Source: Podospora anserina
Taxonomy: Eukaryota
DNA length: 64,000 nt
Direction: 5' to 3'
Assembly (NCBI GenBank): GCA_017654855.1
Contig: CM030336.1
Span: 4,278,001-4,342,000, forward strand
Positions 925 to 46,282 of this stretch are shown piece after piece; the first letter of the stretch is position 1, and each line of letters starts with the position of its first letter. Position numbers and translations under genes: made by a program. The notes under the pieces are model-generated. The model had not been told where the DNA came from. It did not search any database and was given only the letters and a program-made list of their open reading frames with translations.

Positions 925-1302
925 TGTGACGAACCCCTGTACAGAACCTCTGAAAGGGATACTGGTTGAAGGTAACTTCTGACAATTGGTTCGGTGCAGC
1001 TAAATAGTGCACAACAAGATGTCTCAATCACAACAGCTAAGATACCACGATTGTGACTTGTCATTGCATACTGCGGAACTGTCTATCTACACCAGCCAGT
1101 TCCTCCGTATATATAGACCTTGGGACCGTGGACCGTTGACTTACAGACGGTCCTCGGTACTCACCTTATTGGTCCGTCCTGAACTGTGGACCGTGAGCCC
1201 CGCCGCGGTCCCCGGTCCCAATCTTATTGGTTCTCTAATGATTGGCTGCGGGCGCCCGGCGCCCCGTACACTGTCTGACCTGCTTGTTGGCTTACTGTGA
1301 CA
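925..1302. mobile_element. Probable solo LTR (~378 bp) of an LTR retrotransposon
   Basis: Bounded by TGTGAC (925) and TGTGACA (1302), i.e. TG...CA on both strands. Contains TATATATA (~1108) and several CCAAT/ATTGG boxes, and has no convincing ORF. The flanks ATCAG/ACAGC are not an exact TSD. Confidence 0.55.
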
Positions 1303-12500: not shown

Positions 12501-14686
12501 GGCATTGGGCAGTGGAAGCGGAGCTGGTGGGATGAAGCTCTGGCGATTCATGAGACAGACGCAGGCGATGACTCGCGTGATTGTGTCCTTTCAGAAGCAG
12601 GTGAAGCTTCCACTGCTTCTAAAAAGCTTCCAAAGTGGGCCCTGACAACTTGGCCAGGTAAATGCCTGCAGAGCGAGGCAATTTTCCACGTGTTCTGGCA
12701 AGCCCAAGGAATGAAGCTTTGACATATCGATTGCTTTTTCCCCACCATTGGGCCAGACGCTCCGAGACCCCTTCACTGCCTCAACCAGGACTTTCCTTGT
12801 GAACGGAGGAGTTCGTCTCGTTTTTTTCTTCGACACCGAATGGCCTTTTCGGGGTTTCGGCATCAGTGGCATGTGAAGAGGGACTTCCAGCTTGTCTATT
12901 GTCGGAGTTGCGGTGCGAGTGACAGCGACAATGCGACCGAAGGAACCTGGACGGACGAGCCCTGGGGAAAGCTTGTCATTTCATCAGTTCCATGTTCCCA
13001 ACCTGGAGAACGAAGCATTCGGTTCGACGGAGATCCAGAGGGAGCAAATCCATGGGTCTGTGTGCCAGACACATCAGATGAATCTAGGAGAATAATAATT
13101 ATGGCAGGGCCTCTGTTGACCGGTGTGGGTCAAACGGTCGTGCAGAGGAGGAGTGAGCGCGGTCAGCGGCCAGCGCGCTCGCTCACCTGAACGGAATCTC
13201 CGCTGTCCCGAAACATTGGTGATTTTGGTGCATTGGCACATTGCGGAAGAGCCCTATGGAGGAAGGTGCACCGAAGTACCGAGTAAAGCCTTTTTGCCCC
13301 ATGGTTTCGCACCCTGACAACTGTCGCGATGTTGCAATGTCGCAACCGATATTGGCGACAGACGCACAACACGGCAGACACCACGTGCTCGAGTGCTGGT
13401 GCGCTCCTCGACGCTCGCGCCTCTCGCCTGTGCTTAGGCTTGTACGGATAGCGGTTGCGAAACAGGCGCTGATTCGCTATGCCTGGTTCTTGGAAGTTGT
13501 TGTGGCTTTTCTGATTTCTCTACTGTATTACGAGAGTGCCCCAGGTGACCGGTGCAGTCGATATGGGTATCGAGAGATCGAGACAAGAGACAAGAGATGG
13601 CAATGGAACAGCCCAGCGGCTCAATAGCTCACAGCAGGAATGCGCGGAGGAGGTCTGCCCGAGGGATGATAGTTGATAATAATGATGGGCAAATAAATGA
13701 TGGTTGGGCTGGTACGCTGGCACTGCTGCTGGTTAATGGTGAGCCAAACTGAGGTGAGGGTACTGCGGCAATCGGTAGTGGGTACCTCAGCCAAGCCCCT
13801 CAACGCCCCAGGTCCCGACCGTTCTGGCTCTCCCGCCCTCCGTTTCCACCTCAGCACCGCACCTCAGCTGTTCGTTCCCCTCCTTCTCTCCAAGGCATCA
13901 CGGCCGGTACCTGCCTTTACCTCCATACCTGTGTTCAGGTACTTACTACCTGCCCGCTTCTGCTGCCAGCATACCTATCTATCCGTAACATCAAACATAT
14001 CCTTTGCTCCTCCTCCTGAGCGGTTTCTGAGACGGATGTGGCTCGACTTCTTTTCACCAGCATTGCAAAAGATGCCGCTTTAGGTTTAGGGAAGATATCG
14101 CTATGAACGAGACAACCAATTCGAGCATGGCTTGTCTCAGTTTCTCTCCATTGGGACCTCCAAAAGAACGCTGCCAAATTTTCTTCCAAGCTTCCATTTC
14201 CCACCAGGGCAGCCCTGCCCCCGCTTCTCTCACACCCCTCTCGGCCCGGCTCAATCGCTGGCCCCTGTCCCCTTGTCCCCCCCCCCCCCGTCCCCTGTTG
14301 ACAATGGAGGACTGGTACCTCTAGGTACCTCCCCTGTCCTAGCTCTGTTGCATCCTCCACTGAAGCTAGCTTCTCCAGTAGTGCATATTTCCCGACCCCT
14401 ACCTCACCACACACCCAGGCTTCGAGTATGCATGGTCGATAGCATGGGTTCCCGGTCTCGCTCTCCGGCTTGACAGCTCTCCTGCGGCTTCTATATCTAC
14501 TGTACTCCTCTCGACATCCCACAATACTATCTTGACTTTCGATCCCACGTCACTCCCAACATCTACGAGCTCACTGATTTCCACATCGAGTCCAAGACTC
14601 TACACCACCAGATCCTCAGCCACCTCAGCTTTGTCTTTCACCTCCATCCACCACCTCAACCAACCACCCACAACAACTCAGTCAAA

Positions 14687-26900: not shown

Positions 26901-28106
26901 TTTCATGGCTGTCGGCTGTTAGCTGAGCAAGCCAGTTTTGGTCGGCGAACTTGGCGAGAACAATGGAATCGAATATGCAGGGGCGCAATAGATGATCGAT
27001 TCCCGAAGGAGCACTGCCGACTCAAACATAGGTTTCCGGTCGCTGTATCCGCACCGCAAGCTAGCCAAGGACCGGGCTGATAATCGTTCAGTTGTATCAC
27101 AACGTCAAAGATCACCATTTCATTGTGTTTCGTCCCGGTTGGCTAACTTGTGATGAACAGGTGTGCAAGCATGGTGGTACCGCGGGCGCCCGGACACGGC
27201 TCCGGGTGCAATGTTTGCTCGATTTGTGGCCGAATCGGACAGCTCTGACTGGTCACTTTGGCTTCTTCTTATGCCGCTATCCTGTGAAAAGGTTGAAGTC
27301 CGAGAGAACGCGGCGGTAGTGGACATTGAAGAATATCGGAAGACGACATTCTTCAGCCCGCGTTCAACCACCGGGACTTATTTCCTTCCTCGAAAGCAAC
27401 ACGGTCCAAGTCGGCGAAGCTAACACCACTAGTGTAGACAAGTTCATTTGGTTTCCCAGGATTGTTTGTCCCGCACTACTGCAGCCACCCGTTGAACAGA
27501 CTGGCGGGGTGGTGGTCTGATGCCCAGGATCTTGGGGTTCGGGGTAGATGGAAACGGTACAGTAGTAAACGGAATCAAATTGAGCCCTCCTTGTTAAGCG
27601 ATGGGGTTAGCTAAGTAGGCAAATGCAAATACAGCAAGCATGCTTTGTAGTCGACACCTCGATTACTACTTTACTACTGGCCAAATACCGAAGTCGCTCA
27701 CATCTGGTTGGATATTCCGTAATGTGCTTCATATGTAGGGATATGCGGATAGATTCAAGTAAAAGCTGACAAGCAAATGCCATGACAAATTGATGTGGAA
27801 TGTTGTGTTGACCCAAATCGCAAGCTCAGATTCATTGCACAAAAGAGCGTGACTAGTGCCTTCCTGCCTTCGGTGCTGCCCCAACGCCCCTTCCCAATCT
27901 TGAACTTGTCAAAGGTAATTCAGGCAGGCGCGTTGGTCTTTCCAGCTCCACCCACCTTCCTAACTCCCGGCATGGCAAGTATTTGAAATCCGGCCGAAAC
28001 ACCGTGTAATTCCGTGACCGTGATATTCCGCGGTATTATGAGACGAAACCCAAGCAACAAGTGCCCTACCATAGATCGCCGCTTTTAAGGCCTCTTCGCC
28101 CCTTGG

Positions 28107-28148
28107 CTCAGCTTCTGCTCAGCTAGCTATTCATCAGCCCCGCTCAGC
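28107..28148 (+). repeat. Left subterminal CTCAGC cluster
   Basis: CTCAGC at 28107, 28118 and 28143, plus ATCAGC at ~28133. Confidence 0.7.
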
Positions 28149-28150
28149 TC

Positions 28151-30359
28151 CCCATCGGCCCCAGTCCGTGACAGAGGCAAGTATCTCAACATTGGCATTC
28201 CACAGGATATCTGAAAATACTAACTTGGTTGCCAGTTCATTAAGGGACCTCTAGCAAAAGAAATGGACATGCCGAAGCATAAAAGGCGTCGAAGGTTCGC
28301 TACGAAAAATGCCATGCTCAACTACGCCAGACAGCTCTGGGCGGCAGATTGGATTGAGCACAAACAGCAACACCTGTTGATGACTGGGGTCTCTCATTGG
28401 GCAAAGCCTACTCTTCTTCCCGGATTGGGGAGTATATCGAGTCCACCTGCCGCGGGGGAACCGGTCGAGGCCTCTACTTCAAGGTAACGATATTGCCCAT
28501 GGCCCAGCAACCCAGGCAAACGCTAACCAGCGCCCAAGGATCTCACATTTGTGGTATTCATCAACGAGGAAGGGGTGCCGGAGTTCGCCATTCAGCTGAC
28601 CCGAGATGCCAAAAATATGACCAGTACGCCTAACAAAAGGTAGGAATCATCGCTCAGCTCTTGAATCCTTCTTCTCATCCCTCTTTACTTTAGACCGCAA
28701 CACGCCTTATACGAAGGTATCAAACCTGGAGTGCTCTGCTTCAATCCTATGCTTCCATTTCTGGCTAGACTTCTTGCATACGAAGCTTTCAGGGACTACA
28801 AAACCATTGACGAGCTTCTCACGATCAAGCCACCGGAAGGTGAGATGTGGCTGGTACAATGGAAGGAACATCTTCTTGAGACGCCATTCTTTAGAAGTCG
28901 GTCAAGCGAGGATATCGAGACTGCCGGTGCCTTTAGCCATCGACTGCCGTCACTGGGTCTACGAGCAGGATACCCAACACCACCGAGACATCATGATATT
29001 CTGGCAGAGGGTCTTCACCTTATGAGTACGTATTAGATTTTTCCCCCCTTTGTTTTCTTCTACTAACATGTCCTCACCAATAGATCAATTCGAATCTGAA
29101 GCCACGCGGGTGGTCTATGCCGGATATACCGACCCAAATACGCTTGCTACACATTACCTACTCCGAAACGGCGCAGATGGCCAGGCAGCCTACCACGGCC
29201 AGAGAGACGAATCTTGGTCCTTGACCTCTTCTGAGGTTTAACGATACCTCGAAACCCGAGGCTTTGGCAGTGCATTCCAGCCAAACAGCAATACGACTGT
29301 TATACCAGCGCTGAAATGATGCACATTAATCGAGAAATCCTTACGCTACGGGGCACAACCAATATAAAGTCCCAAGAGCAGCGTAAGAAGCTTTACGCGG
29401 AGAAGCGGAAACTCATTGCCGAGCGATTGCGAAAGTGGCAAAACAACCAGCCAGTCAAGCACGACGATCTGCCAGGATACCATAGAGCGATATTTGACCG
29501 TGTCCGGTTCCTGATGCCGGAATGGGACCGCCTGGCACAAAACCTCTTCCTGATTGACAAGCTACGGAGCCCTGCAGGTCTTGCTGTGCTCCATGACATG
29601 CTGAGTCTTTACCGGAAGCGTCGCAATGTGGAGTATCGGCCAGGGCTAGAGCCAGATAGGTGCTACTGCAGAAAGAACAGTGACGGCTCTTCCTACGACT
29701 GGAGACACATATACGATTGTCACAGAACAGCTGCTGCGAAAGCTGGTGGCTTTGCAGAGCTATGCTTCCTCTGCAATGAATGGTTTTGCGGTATCGGGGC
29801 CTGGGAAACTCACTGTCAACATCGCTTGGACCACCCGGACAGCCTTCCGACGTGGTGCGATCCTCTGGCTTACGGCGCGGTTCTCGCCAGGGCTGGCTAC
29901 TGTCCGTTCTGCCTTGGAGATGAACGAATGCCAGCATCTGTGCGGATGTACCAATTTCAGAAGCGGTGGACCTGGCTCGATCACATCCAAACCCACATCA
30001 GAGAGCTCGAAAATGCAACTAGGCCCTTGAACTGCCCACGCCTGCATTCTCATTGTCCACGAAGGTTTGATTCGGTTTTGGATTTACAATTCCATCTTCA
30101 GGATGCTTTCGGTGCCGAGCGCAGTGACGATACTAAGAAGATGAAAAGACCGAGACATGGGGTTAACGGCATCCCACCTTCGAAAGGAAGAGAGTGCAGC
30201 AGTTTCGCAATGATTGTGAAGAAAGCGACAGGATGGCCGCCTTGCAAACCAAATATACCTTTGGTAACACCTGCCCAGATGGTAAAAAAGGCAGTCATCT
30301 CCCGAATCGTCAGGGCTTTGCCAAGAGTCCACGCCTTTCTGCAGCTCGGGTACTACTGA
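28151..30359 (+). pseudogene. DUF3435 tyrosine recombinase (Starship captain-like), 5'-truncated, with frameshifts and a stop
   Basis: Spliced through introns at ~28181-28235, ~28484-28539, ~28640-28693 and 29026-29083. Reads QLWAADW...YSSSRIGEYIESTCRGGTGRGLYFK/DLTFVVF...TRDAKNMT...RPQHALYEG...NPMLPFLARLLAYEAF...TPFFR...LGLRAGY...HHDILAEGL...AGYTDPNTLATHYL...DGQAAY...DLF*GLTIPRNP. C-terminal CFLC/CPFC/C2H2-like Zn motifs. Frameshifts near 28370 and 29200. Confidence 0.8.
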
Positions 30360-31236
30360 CCGCGAAGACGCGACGCCATCCGGTCATAGCACTCCACTAT
30401 CTTCCGCTCCGTCCGAGAAAGTAATTGACCCGGCCATGTCCCTATTTGAATCGTGGCCGGTCGATAAGCTTACGGGCTGCACAGCTGGTGGCCCATTAGA
30501 GGCAACGCCGGACACCCCTCAGTGAATTCAAGGTACGATAACCTATTGAAACTGATACACTGGCTGATTCTTACCACATTATAGGCCCTCTCCACGGCTC
30601 TTTCCCTCGGGCCCTTGGTCTACAAGTCTCCATATCGAATTAAAGACAGAGAACTTATATCGCCTTAACCGTTGGGCTGGATCTCGCAAGTACTGCACAT
30701 CAGGGTCGGAGACAAATTCGGTGTGCCAGGATCCACAGGCCGAGACTGCGACATGCCAAAAAGAAGTCTGTGGCACCTCTGTTTGGATGTCATTTGGATG
30801 CAGGCACCGAAGATTGGCCTCTTGTCAGTTTCATGGTGGTGATAGATGATGGTAGTGAAGGAGAGAGCTGGGCGGGGCCTTGGTACTTCCTGTCTCGGCC
30901 CAGGACGCACGCCTCAATAGTGAATGCCTCAGGCACAAACCTGTGGCCACACCGGGATTGACCTAATCATCGCACCCGAACTGTGCACCAACGTCTATCG
31001 CCCCCTTCACAGCATCAACCATGCCACACCAAATTGATTGGCTCCTGGTTGACCACCTTCGAATCGTAAGCGCTCACACAATGCAGCTCTCTGTGCACGG
31101 CCTCTGAGCTTGTCGGTCCTCCCACCTCTCGCTGTGCAGAGGGATACTTATACCACTTGTGGCCTTCTCCGTCCCGCCCCTCATTATCAATTTGACGTGA
31201 TTTGAGTCATTTTGCTGGGCCCTCCTATAACTCACA

Positions 31237-32865
31237 ATGGCATGGACTATCTTCACCGTGAAAACCAGCGACTACATTGTCCTACACTCAGACAATCAGG
31301 CGTACTGGTCGACCATGGAGCGGAAATTCAAGCAAGACCTCTTCACGCCTGATAGTCCAACAGAGCACAGCGAGAGCGGCACACCTGCTCCTCCGCCACT
31401 TCCGCCTCTCAATATCCTCCGGTTTACGACAGAGCATATGCCCAAGGATCCTGGTACAGGATTCGTCTTGGGACCGATAAGGACAAATGCGACGTCCTCC
31501 TATATAACAGTCGGGAGTCAGGTATCAGTGGTAGGCAATTCGCCATGCCATTCCGCACAGATACTGGCGTATGATCCTAAGAAACCATTCCCGAGTATCA
31601 ACACAGATTAAGTTGCCGAATGAAGGTTTGGTCTATCTCGACACACAGAGGGCACAGGCGACATCGAAATCTACCTTTCTACCCTCGATGCTTCGACACG
31701 TCCGTTTATACCCGACAAGCCAGCCTCCTGTTCTGCCTAACTCTCTTTTAGGACCATATTATCCGGTTCTACGAATTCAGCGTTCGCGGTGAGGACGGGC
31801 CTCAACTTATCATGGAGTTCGCTGCGTGTGGCAGCCTCCTAGGCCAGAGTCAATCACGCAAGTTCACCGATCGAGAGGGCTGAAAAATCATTCGCCAAAC
31901 CCTTGAAGGACTCAAATACCTCCATGGAAAGCGTGTCATCCACCGGGACCTAAAGCCTGGCAATATCCTACTTGTCACCCGTAAGCCTATCCACGTCAAA
32001 GTAACAGACTTTGGCATCTCGGGCAATACGGCCGATGAGTACAATACTCAGTGCGGGACCGAGCTATACGCCGCTCCCAAGCTCTGGAATCCCCCCTACA
32101 CGGAAAAGATCGATATCTGGTCAGTGGGCATCATCGTTATGGAGCTCTGGGTCGGATTGCCCAAGTACAACCGTAACACATGGGCAGAAGATGTGATGTC
32201 TCGCAAAAAAACGAGCCTCTAAGGATGTCAGGCGCTTTCCCCACCACCTGTTACAATCTTCCTCCGGGAAACAGCCACCGGCTCAAGGCTGCCTCAACCT
32301 TCCATTTGTTAAGCCAAGGCGTAAATACGAAGGGGTGCCGGATTTGCATCCTTTGCAGAAACCGAGGCTTGAAATAGAGAGCCAGGACCCGACAGTGCCC
32401 TTCAATGACGCGATCCTCGATGCGGCCATTTGGAATTCTGTAGGGCCTGAAGCATCTTATGCCCCGGTCAACCCTGGGCTCCCCGATGAGGTCCCCGATC
32501 TGGCTACTTGGAATGCTCGAGGAGCAGCCAATCTTGGAACAGAGACTCAGGACCTAATCGTGCCCTTCAATGACGAGATCCTCGATACAGCCATTTGGAA
32601 TCCTGGGCTCGGAGCAACGTCGAATTGGCCACAGGGGGAAGCCACGCTTGCTTGCCCCCCGACCAATCCCATTTCCGAGATTTCAACTTGCATCCGCTCA
32701 TCCCCAGTCCTGGATTCCTGGAGGGGACCCAGACAATGCGCCATCGGCAGCGCAGGCCACGGCTCGCCACACCGGAAACACGAACGTCGATCAGAATGCC
32801 CAATAAGCCTCAAATCTATAATGGTTTTGATTTCCTCCCCTGGGGAACATCTGGATTCCATATAA
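31237..32865 (+). pseudogene. FHA-like + Ser/Thr protein kinase pseudogene (element cargo)
   Basis: N-terminal GFVLG-[fs]-TDKDKCDVLL...GISGRQF (FHA-like). Kinase motifs MEFA, LKYLHGKRVIHRDLKPGNILL (31941), KVTDFG (~32007), CGTELYAAPK and KIDIWSVGII. Several frameshifts; the Gly-loop/VAIK N-lobe was not found. Confidence 0.8.
32383..32604 (+). repeat. Two-copy ~57-bp direct repeat, 165-bp spacing, in the kinase tail
   Basis: CAGGACC..GTGCCCTTCAATGACG.GATCCTCGAT..GCCATTTGGAAT at 32383 and 32548, encoding QDPTVPFNDAILDAAIWN and QDLIVPFNDEILDTAIWN. Confidence 0.85.
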
Positions 32866-33459
32866 ACCCGACAACTGTACCATCAACATCACTCGGATTC
32901 TCAAAGCCGCAGGGTTCCCTCGTTCTAAATTGTCTACTCCAGAGTTGCAGTATGTGATATTCGAAAAGTTATCCTACGCGGTTACGTATGTCTTCAGGGG
33001 ACGTTCATCCCTTACGAAGATGCCATCTGCATATGTAATTATTTGGAGATTGAGTCAAATTTTCTAGATACTTATAGATACCTTAACCCTTGAACACTAA
33101 GGCTCCCTCCACAGATTGACCCCAGCCCCATACTCCCGAGGAAGAGGGCCAGGTGACGCTCAGGTATACTCTGCAGAACTATGGCGCTGAGGATTTGTCG
33201 ACTACGGTCCATTCATGTGATATGGCCCTGACTGGCTGACCACTTGGGGGGAGAAGCCATTGGAGGCATTGGAGGCCTTGGAGGCTGAGACCAAGTCCAA
33301 CAGGAATTAGAATCAGGTGTATCGAGTCTCGCGGACTTGGGTTAAAGGAGGTCGAATCCTCAATGCGGGCAAATCGAGCCGGGGCCAAAAACAGGACGTT
33401 GTCCCAGATCTGGGACCTTGCAGGGGCATGTGATCCCAAAAGTTGGCTTGTGCAGATAC

Positions 33460-33540
33460 CTCAGCTTAACCTCAGCTCAAGCTCAGCCCACCCCGGCCTC
33501 AACTCAGGCCCCCTCAGCCCAAGCTCAGCACCAACTCAGC
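33460..33540 (+). repeat. Right subterminal CTCAGC cluster
   Basis: CTCAGC at 33460, 33471, 33482, 33513, 33524 and 33535, and CTCAGG at 33503; mostly 10-11-bp spacing. Confidence 0.85.
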
Positions 33541-33858
33541 TTAGAGCGGCAGGAGCTCAGTTCTGGAAACGGAAATGGATGTTGGTGTGCTTGAGTCTCG
33601 TCTCCGAGTAGTTTGGCATTATATAAGGCATCGTGCCAGATCCTCAATCATTCTTGTTGGTTGGCTCGCACTAGAAATGTAACGTAAGCAGGTCAGCGCT
33701 GTTGGGTGGTAAATGGACACAAGTGCTGCTGTTGGCGATCTTGTGCGGGGGAGCGTCGGAGTCAAAAGTTGTGACATCCGTCATACTTAAACACCGAGAT
33801 TTCACAAACCATTAGGCTTCCTCAGTCCTGACCTACCCACCTTACACAAAATAAAACC

Positions 33859-35209
33859 ATGACATCCAGGCTCGACTCCATTCTTGAAAAGTATGTTGCC
33901 CAAGGCAACAACACGGCGAACAAGGTGTTGGGGGCATCACTGGTTGTCGCGAATGAAGATGGTACAGTACTTACCCCTCCCGCTCACTTGAGAAGGTAGG
34001 TAGCCATTAAAACTGACATTGTTTTTCCCAGAGGTGATTTACTTTGGCTCAGCAGGCCGCATTAAAATGGCCCCTGATGCTCCTGCATTTTCGACCGACT
34101 CTTTCAGCTTTGTCGCGTCTATGACCAAAATCATCACCATCATCTGTGTCCTTCAAATCGTCGAGCGAGGTCTCATCGGACTGGAAGACGATATCCGCCC
34201 GCTGGTCCCTGAGCTGGCTTCGGCACAGATTCTGAAGGGTTTCGACGAAGAAAATGGTGGTGCCCCCATCTTGGTGGAAAACACAGTGCCCATTACGCTG
34301 AGACATCTCTTGACGCACACCATAGGCCAAGGGTACGATGTTGGTGACCCAGATCTGTTGCGATGGTCCCAGTACATTGGGAGAACAGTCAATGCAACCA
34401 CCTCGACGCGGGAAGGCTGGGACACGCCTCTCAAATTCGAACCAGGAACGGGTTGGTACTACGGCACTGCAATCGACTGGGCGGGATTTGCTCTTGAAGA
34501 GCTCACAGGAACAACACTTGGCGAATACATGCAGGAGCACGTTCTCGATCCACTGGGAATGGACGAGACCACATTTCATCCGTTGCGACCGGAGATCTGG
34601 GAAAAGGTCAAGGACCGATACGTGGAAGTTTCTTATCGAGCTGCGGATGGTACACTAACCGAAGGACCACTCATCACACCGCTTGAACCGCCTGTTGAAA
34701 GTGGTGGCTCTGGACTGTTTACAACAGCTGCTGATTACATCAAGTTCTTGCAAGCTTTGCTGCAGGACACAAAGGGCAAGGGTAATCTGCTGAAGAAAGA
34801 AACTGTTGACGAGCTTTTCCGGCCTCAGTTGAACGACAAACAGAAGGAGGACGAGGCAAATATTTTGATCGGGACAGGTTTCGCACCGGAATTTGATGAG
34901 CTGACTGCCAGTGAGATAAGCTGGGGGTTGGGTGGCGGCATTAATTTGGTGGATCTGGCAACGGGAAGAAAGAATGGAAGCATGATGTGGTCTGGGGTGG
35001 TCAACCCGCATTGGGTGAGTCTCTCTTTTGTTTCCCCCCTCATTCATTGCAGCTGGCTGACGTTGATGACTCTCAAGATTATGGACCCGACTACCGGAAT
35101 CACTGCAACACTGTTTGTCAGTGTCTTGCCGTTTGGTGACCCAGTTCCAGGCAGGCTTTTCAAGGAGCTCGAGGCCGTCATATATGGCGAGCTGCTGTCG
35201 GAATGTTGA
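33859..35209 (+). CDS. Beta-lactamase-family serine hydrolase / LovD-like transesterase (exons 33859-33961, 34032-35014, 35078-35209)
   Basis: ASMTK (SxxK), ITLRHLLTHT, PLKFEPGTGWYYG, YMQEHVLDPLGM, SGGSGL and GSMMWSG; canonical introns. Confidence 0.9.
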
Positions 35210-43554: not shown

Positions 43555-44086
43555 CGTTGCTAGCTAGACTGCGGTGAAATCTTTTAGAAGTTCTTGATCT
43601 GGCTTGCGGAGGCTGAGGCACGCCACCGTGGTGGTTGATGTGGCTTGCATTAGCGCCGGTAGCTCCATCTTAACGGTGACTTGTGAGGCAGGCAGGCGCG
43701 AAGATCGGTTAAACCTGCCAGAACTAGAACAGTTAAACGAGCAGATATTGAGCTTTCAGATGGTTAGGGAGCCATCATTTCATGCCTGGAAATCGTCTCT
43801 TCATTTCAAGGTGCGCATTACTTGTGCTCTAGAGCAAAGAAGGTCCGGGCGATAGCTCTTGTACCTAGGTACCTTGCGCTGCCTGTGTAACCTCTGCTTT
43901 TTCTGAGCCAATCAATGCGCTCAAACTACCACAACTATTCAGAAAGTCGCAGCTTCAGCTGAGCTTCGGTCGGGATGGGTGCCTTGCAGTCAGCCAGCTC
44001 TGGGCTTCAACTTCGAAGCAAAGAGGCATGAGTGTATTTCATCTCTCTTCCTTCCCTTTTCCACCCCGAGTTGTCTTGCTGACAGC

Positions 44087-46282
44087 ATGGCATCATCACT
44101 GTACGACCGCCTCAAAGTAAACCCTCCCGAGATCCGTTTGCTCAGCCTCCTACCTGCGACGCGAAAGACAGCCCCACTTATCTGCACTCTGCGGACGGTC
44201 TCACTCACGAACGCCTCTTCCATTCGATATCTCGCACTTTCTTACGTCTGGGGTAATCCAAGCGACACCGAAGCCATCTTTGTCAATGGAGCACCCTTTG
44301 AAGCAACCGCAAACCTTTGCGCTGCACTCCGACACATGCGCTTTGAAGACGAGCCCTTGATACTGTGGGTAGACGCAATTTGCATCAACCAAAGCAACAA
44401 TGTCGAGAAATCCGAACAGATCCGCATAATGAAAGACATCTACCAGACTGCCCCTGCTGTTAGTATCTGGCTCGGTCACAGGGACGAGCAGAGCTCGTTG
44501 GCCATGAGGCTCATTCGTTTCGCCGCAGCGCTATACACTCGATCTCGAGCCCAAACAGACGATAAACTGCTTACGGCAGATATCATGCATTACACCCTCA
44601 ATGACACCAACCTCCAAGCCCTTGTATCATTTTTCACCAAAGACTGGTGGGGACGGATATGGGTTGTCCAAGAAGCTGCCGTGGCCCAACACGCATTGTT
44701 TGTTTGTGGGAACGAGACACTGGGCTTTCGAGACTTTGCTTATGCCTTTTTCTGCTGGGCTGCGCTTCTGAAAACGCCTATCCCTAATCCTTGGCTCCGA
44801 AGCTTTAAGGAGCTTGCTGTTATTATCAACGGAACCAGCCCTAGGGCGGTTCTTTGGCAGTACACCCGCTTTCACCTACCCGAGCTCATGGAGCATACCC
44901 AATTTTACAAGGCATACACTTTGGAAGAAATGCTGGAAGAGAGTTGGAATTTTGACTCTACAGATCCGCGAGACAAGGTCTATGCGTGGATTGGTCTTCT
45001 TTCTCATGTTGATGTCGCCATCGTACCCGACTATGATGCCACTATCGCTGAAGTCTACATCGGAGTTGTAAAGCTTATTTTGGAACACAGAGGCTCTCTT
45101 TCGCTGATATCCTTCACAGGCTCTGGAGCCCGGCCTCCCAACACCCCACCCATCATTGGTCTCCCCTCTTGGGCTCCGGATCTGAGAAAGAGCGTCATTT
45201 TACAAATAAGGTGGTGGATGAGGCCAAAGAGCCACCGGGCATCAGGTAGCGCGAAAGCCAATGCGACCATTTCTCATGATCATCGAACTCTCATCACAGA
45301 TACCATCATTGCTGGTAGACTTTGCGTTGCAGATAAAGATCGTCAAGAAAATGACAGGTGGCTTGCGGGCGAGAAGCTCTGCCGTTGGCTGTACATTATT
45401 TTGCAAAACGACTTGCACCTACAACAAACCGCCTCTGCAACTGGAGACTCAAGCGACGCTTTTTTCCGAGCTTTAACACTCTCCTACCATGACGACCACT
45501 TGAACTTTGACTCATCTCACTATACGCGACTGCTCAGAGATGGGAAAATGCTAAGACTTGGGTTCATGGCTTATGTTGGGTACTTGGATCGCTTCCAGGA
45601 TTGTGTCACCTGGCAGTTTCAATGCAATAGGCGAGGAAAGGCATCCCCGCCTTATCACTTTCGGGGCCTCTTGGAGTATGGACCCGGCCAGAGGGACGAC
45701 GCAGTACAATCGGCTGCCGAACAGCAGATGACGCTCGGACTATTAAGACCACATTCTCTGAACAGAAAACCGCTGAAGTCACCCCCGCCAGAGCCAGAAT
45801 GGTCTGACTTTGCCAACTTTAGGAGATTCTTTGATTGCTTTAGTCACAGGACCTCTTCATCGTCTTCAGCAGCATCTCCGTCTTTGCAAGCACTGGAAGA
45901 CTTGATGACATCCTTGAACCCAGCTCTGCAGCCTGATGTGCCTTCTCTCCTATCGTCAACAGCAGCAGACTGGCCAACGCAGATAGAAGAAAAGGCAAGG
46001 ATTGCCGTTAGAGACTTGGTTCAAGAGTTTCTCGTGACATTCTCTCGCAGTTCGTCACATAGATCTTTGCTTGTAACAGATACGGGGTACGTAGGGTTAG
46101 GTCCTTGGACTTCGAGCGTGGGTGATTTGGTATGTGTTGTCAAGGGGTGCTCGCTGCCGATCATTGCGACGGAACATGTGTTGGGAGATGGGTGGGAGGT
46201 TGTTGGTCAGGCCTATGTCTGTGGTTGGATGTATGGTGAGAATTTGGAAGGACATGCTTGGAGGGAGATGAGGTTCAAGTAG
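44087..46282 (+). CDS. HET-domain heterokaryon-incompatibility protein (HET-6-like)
   Basis: EIRLLSL, YLALSYVWG, LWVDAICINQ, MKDIY, WWGRIWVVQE, TDPRDKVYA, LPSWAPD and C-terminal GYVGLGP...GDLVCV..G...VGQAYVCGWMYGE. Uninterrupted ORF; the first exon could lie further upstream. Confidence 0.93.
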   Translation: MASSLYDRLKVNPPEIRLLSLLPATRKTAPLICTLRTVSLTNASSIRYLALSYVWGNPSDTEAIFVNGAPFEATANLCAALRHMRFEDEPLILWVDAICINQSNNVEKSEQIRIMKDIYQTAPAVSIWLGHRDEQSSLAMRLIRFAAALYTRSRAQTDDKLLTADIMHYTLNDTNLQALVSFFTKDWWGRIWVVQEAAVAQHALFVCGNETLGFRDFAYAFFCWAALLKTPIPNPWLRSFKELAVIINGTSPRAVLWQYTRFHLPELMEHTQFYKAYTLEEMLEESWNFDSTDPRDKVYAWIGLLSHVDVAIVPDYDATIAEVYIGVVKLILEHRGSLSLISFTGSGARPPNTPPIIGLPSWAPDLRKSVILQIRWWMRPKSHRASGSAKANATISHDHRTLITDTIIAGRLCVADKDRQENDRWLAGEKLCRWLYIILQNDLHLQQTASATGDSSDAFFRALTLSYHDDHLNFDSSHYTRLLRDGKMLRLGFMAYVGYLDRFQDCVTWQFQCNRRGKASPPYHFRGLLEYGPGQRDDAVQSAAEQQMTLGLLRPHSLNRKPLKSPPPEPEWSDFANFRRFFDCFSHRTSSSSSAASPSLQALEDLMTSLNPALQPDVPSLLSSTAADWPTQIEEKARIAVRDLVQEFLVTFSRSSSHRSLLVTDTGYVGLGPWTSSVGDLVCVVKGCSLPIIATEHVLGDGWEVVGQAYVCGWMYGENLEGHAWREMRFK

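Follow-up and report, generated by a model that had tools for sequence, protein, structure and literature searches.

Helically phased GCTCA arrays near the ends of a dead captain element in Podospora anserina and of related elements

Starships are described as consisting of a captain gene, cargo, direct repeats (DRs) and occasional terminal inverted repeats (TIRs); one account (PMC11162782) gives DRs and TIRs a role in excision that is worded as "presumably" and is not demonstrated there, and notes that targets differ within the Enterprise family. For Enterprise itself, which has the captain Kirc and the ends bufo and schoutedenella and belongs to starfish family fam06, Vogan et al. (2021; PMC8092012) report no terminal structures of the long terminal repeat or TIR type at the ends examined. 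Hephaestus, another Starship, moves as a circle and shows a promoter effect, and the accessible passages describe no end repeats (10.64898/2026.09.21.753150). The attP site of phage mv4 carries, according to 10.1101/2023.11.06.565760, adjacent 11-bp direct-repeat arm sites on both arms. Here we describe phased arrays of a short word near both ends of an element in a 64,000-nucleotide stretch of Podospora anserina (assembly GCA_017654855.1, contig CM030336.1, positions 4,278,001 to 4,342,000; hereafter the window, numbered from its first letter). The host of the arrays is a dead DUF3435 (Starship captain) element of about 5.6 kb, with traits of the Starship superfamily: a sense-strand DUF3435 captain as the first gene at the 5' end, a TIR, and cargo behind the captain. 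The arrays are real, conserved and, as far as searched, undescribed. No description of phased sub-terminal arrays in Starships was found in the literature covered, which included the accessible parts of 10.1101/2021.12.13.472469, 10.1101/2025.11.25.690456, PMC11623301 and PMC13465315, with most subscription papers and key supplements outside its scope.

The right array (33460-33540, plus strand) contains six copies of CTCAGC, starting at 33460, 33471, 33482, 33513, 33524 and 33535, and one CTCAGG at 33503. The apparent 21-bp gap holds a degenerate CCCGGC at 33492, which brings the array to eight units in 75 bp, or 10.7 bp each. A sequence-only reading of the window had claimed the six CTCAGC and one CTCAGG on one strand within 81 bp, together with three left copies at 28107, 28118 and 28143 in the orientation of the right array, and all of these were recovered at the same positions. 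The left array (28106-28148, plus strand) comprises these three GCTCAG units and a degenerate ATCAGC at 28133; because it adjoins the deletion that took the 5' part of the captain, it may itself be truncated. CTCAGC is mildly enriched across the window (55 copies against 40.4 ± 6.0; 55 reached in 2 of 100 shuffles). More than two same-strand copies per 81 bp did not occur in any of 200 first-order Markov simulations of 64 kb. The triple pattern is found in the 36-Mb genome only in the window (two matches) and in one (CTCAG)n microsatellite (three overlapping matches), with one match for the reversed control. A coding repeat was considered and rejected, since the period is not divisible by three.

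The array had been placed directly against the right inverted repeat of the element. The adjacency holds (33540-33550, minus strand; CTTAGAGCGGC on the plus strand), but this repeat and its left partner GCCGCTTTTAAG (28078-28089, plus strand) probably do not form the termini. Because a TIR and a DR lie 40-55 bp further out, they are best regarded as an inner core, and the element measures about 5.6 kb. When the two end regions are compared for inverted matches of 17 bp, 28040-28056 (plus strand) and 33588-33604 (minus strand) pair best, at 15 of 17 positions, a score reached by 1 of 1000 random segment pairs. Between the right core and the right TIR lies another GCTCAG, at 33555, outside the inverted repeat named earlier, followed by the conserved block AACGGAAATGG (together 33555-33579, plus strand). 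The left DR, GGTATTAT (28032-28039), adjoins its TIR directly and probably represents target microhomology; the right DR, GGCATTAT (33615-33622), is offset from its TIR by 10 bp, and the two plus-strand copies agree at seven of eight positions. Three sequencing runs (X15, X19 and X24) carry the whole element with an unchanged array and no empty-site joint, and a fourth, X21, contributes two reads; these four runs were picked as the best matches to the element and so are unable to show its absence. As no empty site was seen, the boundaries are only inferred.

Related ends occur elsewhere in the genome. The pattern core-GCTCAG-AACGGAAATG is present at 10 places including the window (reversed control, 0), and TTAAAGCGGC is present at nine other right ends. 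Each of these nine, here called family 2, has 3-9 exact GCTCA words upstream, or 3-21 when variants of the repeat-induced point mutation (RIP) type are counted, and the right end of the window element matches family-2 right ends at 77% over 57 bp. Five matching left ends were found. Pairing of left with right ends outlines three elements, about 5, 18 and 31 kb long, each of which has a short TIR, carries the same GCCGCTTTA core in inverted orientation at its two ends, and has its DR offset at the right end. The window element has the same asymmetric DR layout, and in the family-2 element on C2 the DR is 9 bp long and perfect. A distant captain has left remnants within the C8 element and next to the right end on C4, with a weak trace in the C2 element. 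Three CTCAS words at exactly 11 bp match 13 times in the genome, eight times at such ends and five times at unrelated simple repeats or single sites (control, 1). No GCTCA array was found in about 3-4 kb upstream of the two Pfam DUF3435 genes of other clades (C5 and C7), which judged by position are probably the fam01 and fam09 captains of the starfish tables. The 31-kb family-2 element also contains about 17 tandem units of 126 bp (L105, G000:C8:619146-621268).

A third set of ends is of the Enterprise type. Upstream of the C1 captain, which retains long open frames, a phased GCTCAC array lies at a distance of about 590 bp, and an AGGTAG terminus follows 59 bp further out. About 247.5 kb downstream of this left end are four GCTCA units in the same orientation, one inverted unit and a second AGGTAG. 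The C1 element probably corresponds to Enterprise (Kirc, bufo, schoutedenella), matched by its description in PMC8092012 and not by sequence: it shares with the Enterprise or Spok block the AGGTAG repeat, the length of about 247.5 kb and many solo ends, here with GCTCA arrays at both ends, and its captain shares with Kirc the combination of DUF3435, zinc finger and chromodomain. There are 11 left and 10 right Enterprise-like ends in the genome; arrays are present, some of them eroded, at the nine right ends examined. The window element differs from Enterprise in having a TIR, a length of 5.6 kb, a captain 45% identical to that of C1 and another DR, namely GG(T/C)ATTAT in place of the RGGTAG that the C1 element carries.

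Several observations accompany these ends. On C4 (L151/L118, G000:C4:~3531520, minus strand), a single AGGTAG is all that separates an Enterprise-like right end from a left end, an arrangement that could be either the predicted circle junction copied into the genome or the result of a tandem insertion. Two family-2 right ends in opposite orientation (L078, C1:5795481, minus; L079, C1:6035014, plus) lie near both ends inside the 247.5-kb element and are 92-98% identical over about 800 bp, flank beyond the TIR included. RIP prefers CpA, and in AT-shifted copies (L083, L085, L141, L142 and L149-L152) the units have decayed to GCTTA and ACTCA as expected from RIP.

Captains of other fungi came from a metagenome scan, which yielded 45 loci. 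Of these, 14 were kept and 31 dropped (seven near-duplicates, the rest missing either the 5' region of the gene or sufficient upstream DNA); L031 and L032 have no flanks. Addition of the C1 captain and the C8 remnant brought the set to 16. A motif-agnostic test ranked the helically phased 5-mers within up to 2 kb before each captain match. A GCTCA-type word ranked first in 13 of the 16 loci (on the reverse strand in L043, weakly in L055), second in L048, below another tandem repeat in L050, and was absent in L039; counted by lineage, it was first in eight of 10, second in one and absent in one. It was the top word in 1 of 166 background strand-segments, for a word set fixed only after the arrays had been seen. 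A count-based score of at least five units in 120 bp was reached by none of 142 metagenome and none of 54 window background segments. Identity to the C1 captain is 29-55% among the metagenome captains that have arrays. Thus the clusters are neither common nor unlinked to DUF3435 genes: they are rare elsewhere and stand at the ends of related elements, with word, phase, orientation and distance to the terminus conserved across distant captains. The proposal that such arrays mark DUF3435 element ends is thereby borne out, and sub-terminal arrays appear as a conserved feature of the Kirc-like clade of Starships.

The word itself required revision. CTCAGC describes the window element, but the conserved unit across arrays is (G)CTCA(G/C), with GCTCA as the word common to relatives and CTCAGC as the variant of this element; the flanking bases are family-specific (CTCAGC, GCTCACC, or alternating GCTCAC and GCTCAG). 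The arrays begin about 40-60 bp inside each terminus, beside a GCCGC-type core, and the GCCGC(T) core precedes the array also in family-2 left ends and in L035, L038, L046, L048 and L065. Of 10 left ends inspected, seven have AGGTA 55-59 bp ahead of the first core, even though there is no alignment over the first 40 bp, and lichen-type copies with differing flanks begin at the same GGTAG. In L038 (1690-1890), a palindromic insertion of about 200 bp parts the left terminus from the core.

Given this recurrence, a local origin of the right array can be weighed. Tandem Repeats Finder classes it as a weak 11/21-bp repeat, copy number varies between ends, and the array lies 320-400 bp ahead of a host gene for a beta-lactamase-family hydrolase (start near 33860), all of which would suit a neutral slippage minisatellite or a promoter element of that gene. 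However, the array lies on the inner side of the TIR, the flanks of the genome's other right ends are unrelated, and word, phase and position are the same in the fungi with distant captains. We regard this explanation as very improbable and already largely refuted.

Spacings pooled over 15 arrays peak at 9-11, 20-22, 31-32, 41-42 and 52 bp, with a best period of 10.3-10.4 bp, so that the GCTCA units share one helix face, and their orientation is the same at the two ends. This period equals the helical and nucleosomal repeat, and the spacers between units vary freely and unit number is loose, as might be expected if the phased CA/TG steps served to bend the ends, to position or exclude a nucleosome, or to bind a host bending protein and thereby aid synapsis, with no need for the captain to bind a specific sequence; bacterial systems employ host bending factors. 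The retention of a five-base word of fixed polarity goes beyond the needs of bending, and the flanking bases are family-specific, which makes a purely architectural function improbable in our judgment. No excisionase or host bending factor is known for the array system, and no search for one was made.

The left arrays lie about 390-600 bp ahead of the captain start, a position suitable for an operator or enhancer of the captain gene to which either the captain itself or a host factor binds. On circularisation the right array would be joined to the left one ahead of the captain, oriented alike, and captain expression could change as a result. In the circular form of Hephaestus, the captain promoter is reported to be boosted by the 3' end (10.64898/2026.09.21.753150), and a single word across distant captains would suit a conserved host protein. 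Yet the distance from array to terminus is fixed, and right-end arrays are locked to the core and TIR; those of the window element, of the C1 element of about 247.5 kb, and of the Enterprise-like and family-2 right ends are far from any captain promoter. In Hephaestus, which is of a different family, the boost needed at least 699 bp of 3' sequence, much further in than the arrays. Transcriptional control thus seems unlikely to us, although it deserves more weight than bending alone.

On the protein side, the predicted model of P0021, a related captain (pLDDT 90), has its best matches in Cre (Foldseek E 4e-6). It contains no strand of at least three residues before residue 210, and a lambda-type N-terminal arm-binding domain is thus not seen. 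If the analogy with arm sites holds, the second binding module must therefore be a different one, and the C-terminal zinc-finger region would be the most plausible candidate. The C-terminal Cys/His region is conserved in those array-bearing captains whose sequence covers it, and it resembles tandem C2H2 fingers, by a profile hit to those of ZBTB17 (E 1.5e-4) and weakly by fold.

Taken together, the arrays are probably part of the signal by which the captain recognises the ends of the element. We lean somewhat toward the more specific proposal that they are accessory, arm-like binding sites of the captain, perhaps contacted via its C-terminal zinc fingers, that flank the crossover of the circle. 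Several captain molecules would load side by side on each array, on one helix face, probably through the conserved Cys/His region, while their Cre-like domains would engage the terminal sites beside the DR. Loading would pair two distant ends in the right orientation and lead to excision as a circle, in which the arrays would flank the crossover like attP arm sites and might help to capture a short, naked target. The natural junction on C4 has the layout predicted for such a circle. The arrays had also been suggested to be the cis code for captain recognition. A clade-wide signal at DUF3435 ends agrees with this in part, but since GCTCA is common to three end families in one genome, it cannot be an element-specific code; element specificity more likely resides in the TIR, DR and core.

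Several points weigh against captain binding, which is a putative and only modestly favored reading; the choice of background words after the fact has been mentioned. Three end families use one word although identity among their captains is only 26-45%, a pattern that a host factor would fit too. Unit number ranges from 3 to about 21, indicating slippage and loose constraint. Fold searches of the C-terminal region were weak: the best E was 0.11 and the best Z 3.1, and nothing reached E ≤ 0.001. The captain of L039 is 54-55% identical, with no array in 879 bp upstream; L050, L051 and L057 keep only two units, and L048 is weak. L042 and L043 have a second, reverse-oriented array with 9-bp spacing, and no right end was proven in other species, the downstream array of L065 having left-type polarity. 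Finally, the right end of the window element has its 57-bp block in common with family 2 (77%), although the family-2 captain remnant is only about 29% identical to the captain of the window element. The C1 captain is closer to the latter, yet the C1 ends share only GCTCA and a weak core with the ends of the window element. Chimerism, or a remnant that is not the true family-2 captain, may underlie this mismatch.

In L042 (1582-1690) and L043 (9414-9560), a forward array with 11-bp spacing is followed directly by the reverse array with 9-bp spacing, so that two arrays converge at one left end. In L065, the captain match is followed after about 800 bp by the second array (12960-13040). Where lichen-type loci were searched for right ends, L046, L050, L057 and L059 showed a 19-bp tandem repeat containing GCTCC-like words and nothing more; this repeat is shared near the end of homology (L046:13270-13345, L050:13140-13260, L059:17160-17300) and is possibly a variant of the right-end array.

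The local copy is a relic in which the captain is dead and the ends persist. The captain remnant (28152-30534, plus strand) starts 110 bp inside the left TIR, with homology beginning at about 28150, and lacks about 120 N-terminal residues and the chromodomain. It is not intact, owing to this deletion, frameshifts, stops and an altered catalytic-motif arginine; the zinc-finger region is still open. One captain exon matches Pfam DUF3435 at E 0.0066, under the cut-off, which the close homologs P0004, P0012 and P0021 pass; the close homologs and the C1 captain have both zinc finger and chromodomain, whereas the window copy retains the fingers only. Segments of the remnant are 73-90% identical to the Fusarium protein P0001 (one 41-residue segment, 76%), and its closest captains, from Fusarium, reach 88% identity. 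The window captain nests among Fusarium proteins (FastTree, rows of at least 150 aligned columns, the C8 remnant excluded as too short), and horizontal acquisition from a Fusarium-like donor may plausibly have occurred. The gene fits the description given in PMC8092012 of Pa_5_10116, a pseudogene close to Fusarium homologs, the comparison being by description only. A DNA search with the whole element in its own genome matched nothing except itself, a captain-alignment profile search of viral and genome contigs gave no relatives, and the RIP indices of the element equal those of its flanks.

Behind the captain lies cargo, also broken. A protein kinase gene (31231-32222, plus strand; Pkinase E 2.6e-30 on 31884-32219) has stops and frame changes. 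The remainder (32368-33090, plus strand) has no Pfam hit and consists of a 73-bp internal repeat and a frameshifted tail, which we take to resemble KilA-N/APSES. The 73-bp direct repeat in the tail of the kinase gene (32368-32605) has copies 84% identical and 165 bp apart, with a partial third unit. Outside the element, window 925-1130 is a copy of a high-copy repeat of about 200 bp, often in inverted pairs and abundant in element-rich regions, and an open frame of 791 codons at 43907-46282 contains a HET domain (Pfam E 2.3e-32).

A captain must find ends up to 250 kb apart with a DR of 4-9 bp, and the arrays would provide a candidate attachment site of about 150 bp per end, whose units and phase offer targets for mutation. 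They could also serve to delimit elements and to detect solo ends where no empty site is available, which is the step that holds back Starship annotation. More tentatively, and with clear doubt, Kirc-like captains might be eukaryotic two-module recombinases, with a Cre-like part that cuts at the DR and a zinc-finger module that reads the arrays, and would then be an independent invention of the integrase arm-site principle. If so, the shared word would let one captain engage the ends of other families, and RIP, in disarming elements, would hit the arrays preferentially because of their CpA/TpG steps.

Several short, often helically phased binding sites inside ends or an origin are familiar from DDE transposons (hAT elements, the ends of Mu) and from plasmid iterons, which employ other enzymes; here the mover is a tyrosine recombinase. 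Among Starships, Hephaestus is likewise captain-led, with short direct repeats, a TIR and circular excision (PMC10104507; 10.64898/2026.09.21.753150), but it is of another family and target, the accessible passages contain no sub-terminal arrays, and its minimal ends were tested only at the kilobase scale. The sequence-only reading had likened the arrays to arm-type sites of integrases. Arm-site systems possess an N-terminal arm-binding domain, which is absent from the captain model, and the arrays here, known at the sequence level only, have more units (3 to about 21) in variable number. The likeness to integrase accessory sites would thus be one of layout, without its counterpart in the protein. 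In that layout the parallel stands: as in lambda, the Tn916 group and phage mv4, short direct repeats about 11 bp apart lie in one orientation on both arms around a core, in systems that share the tyrosine recombinase fold and a circular intermediate.
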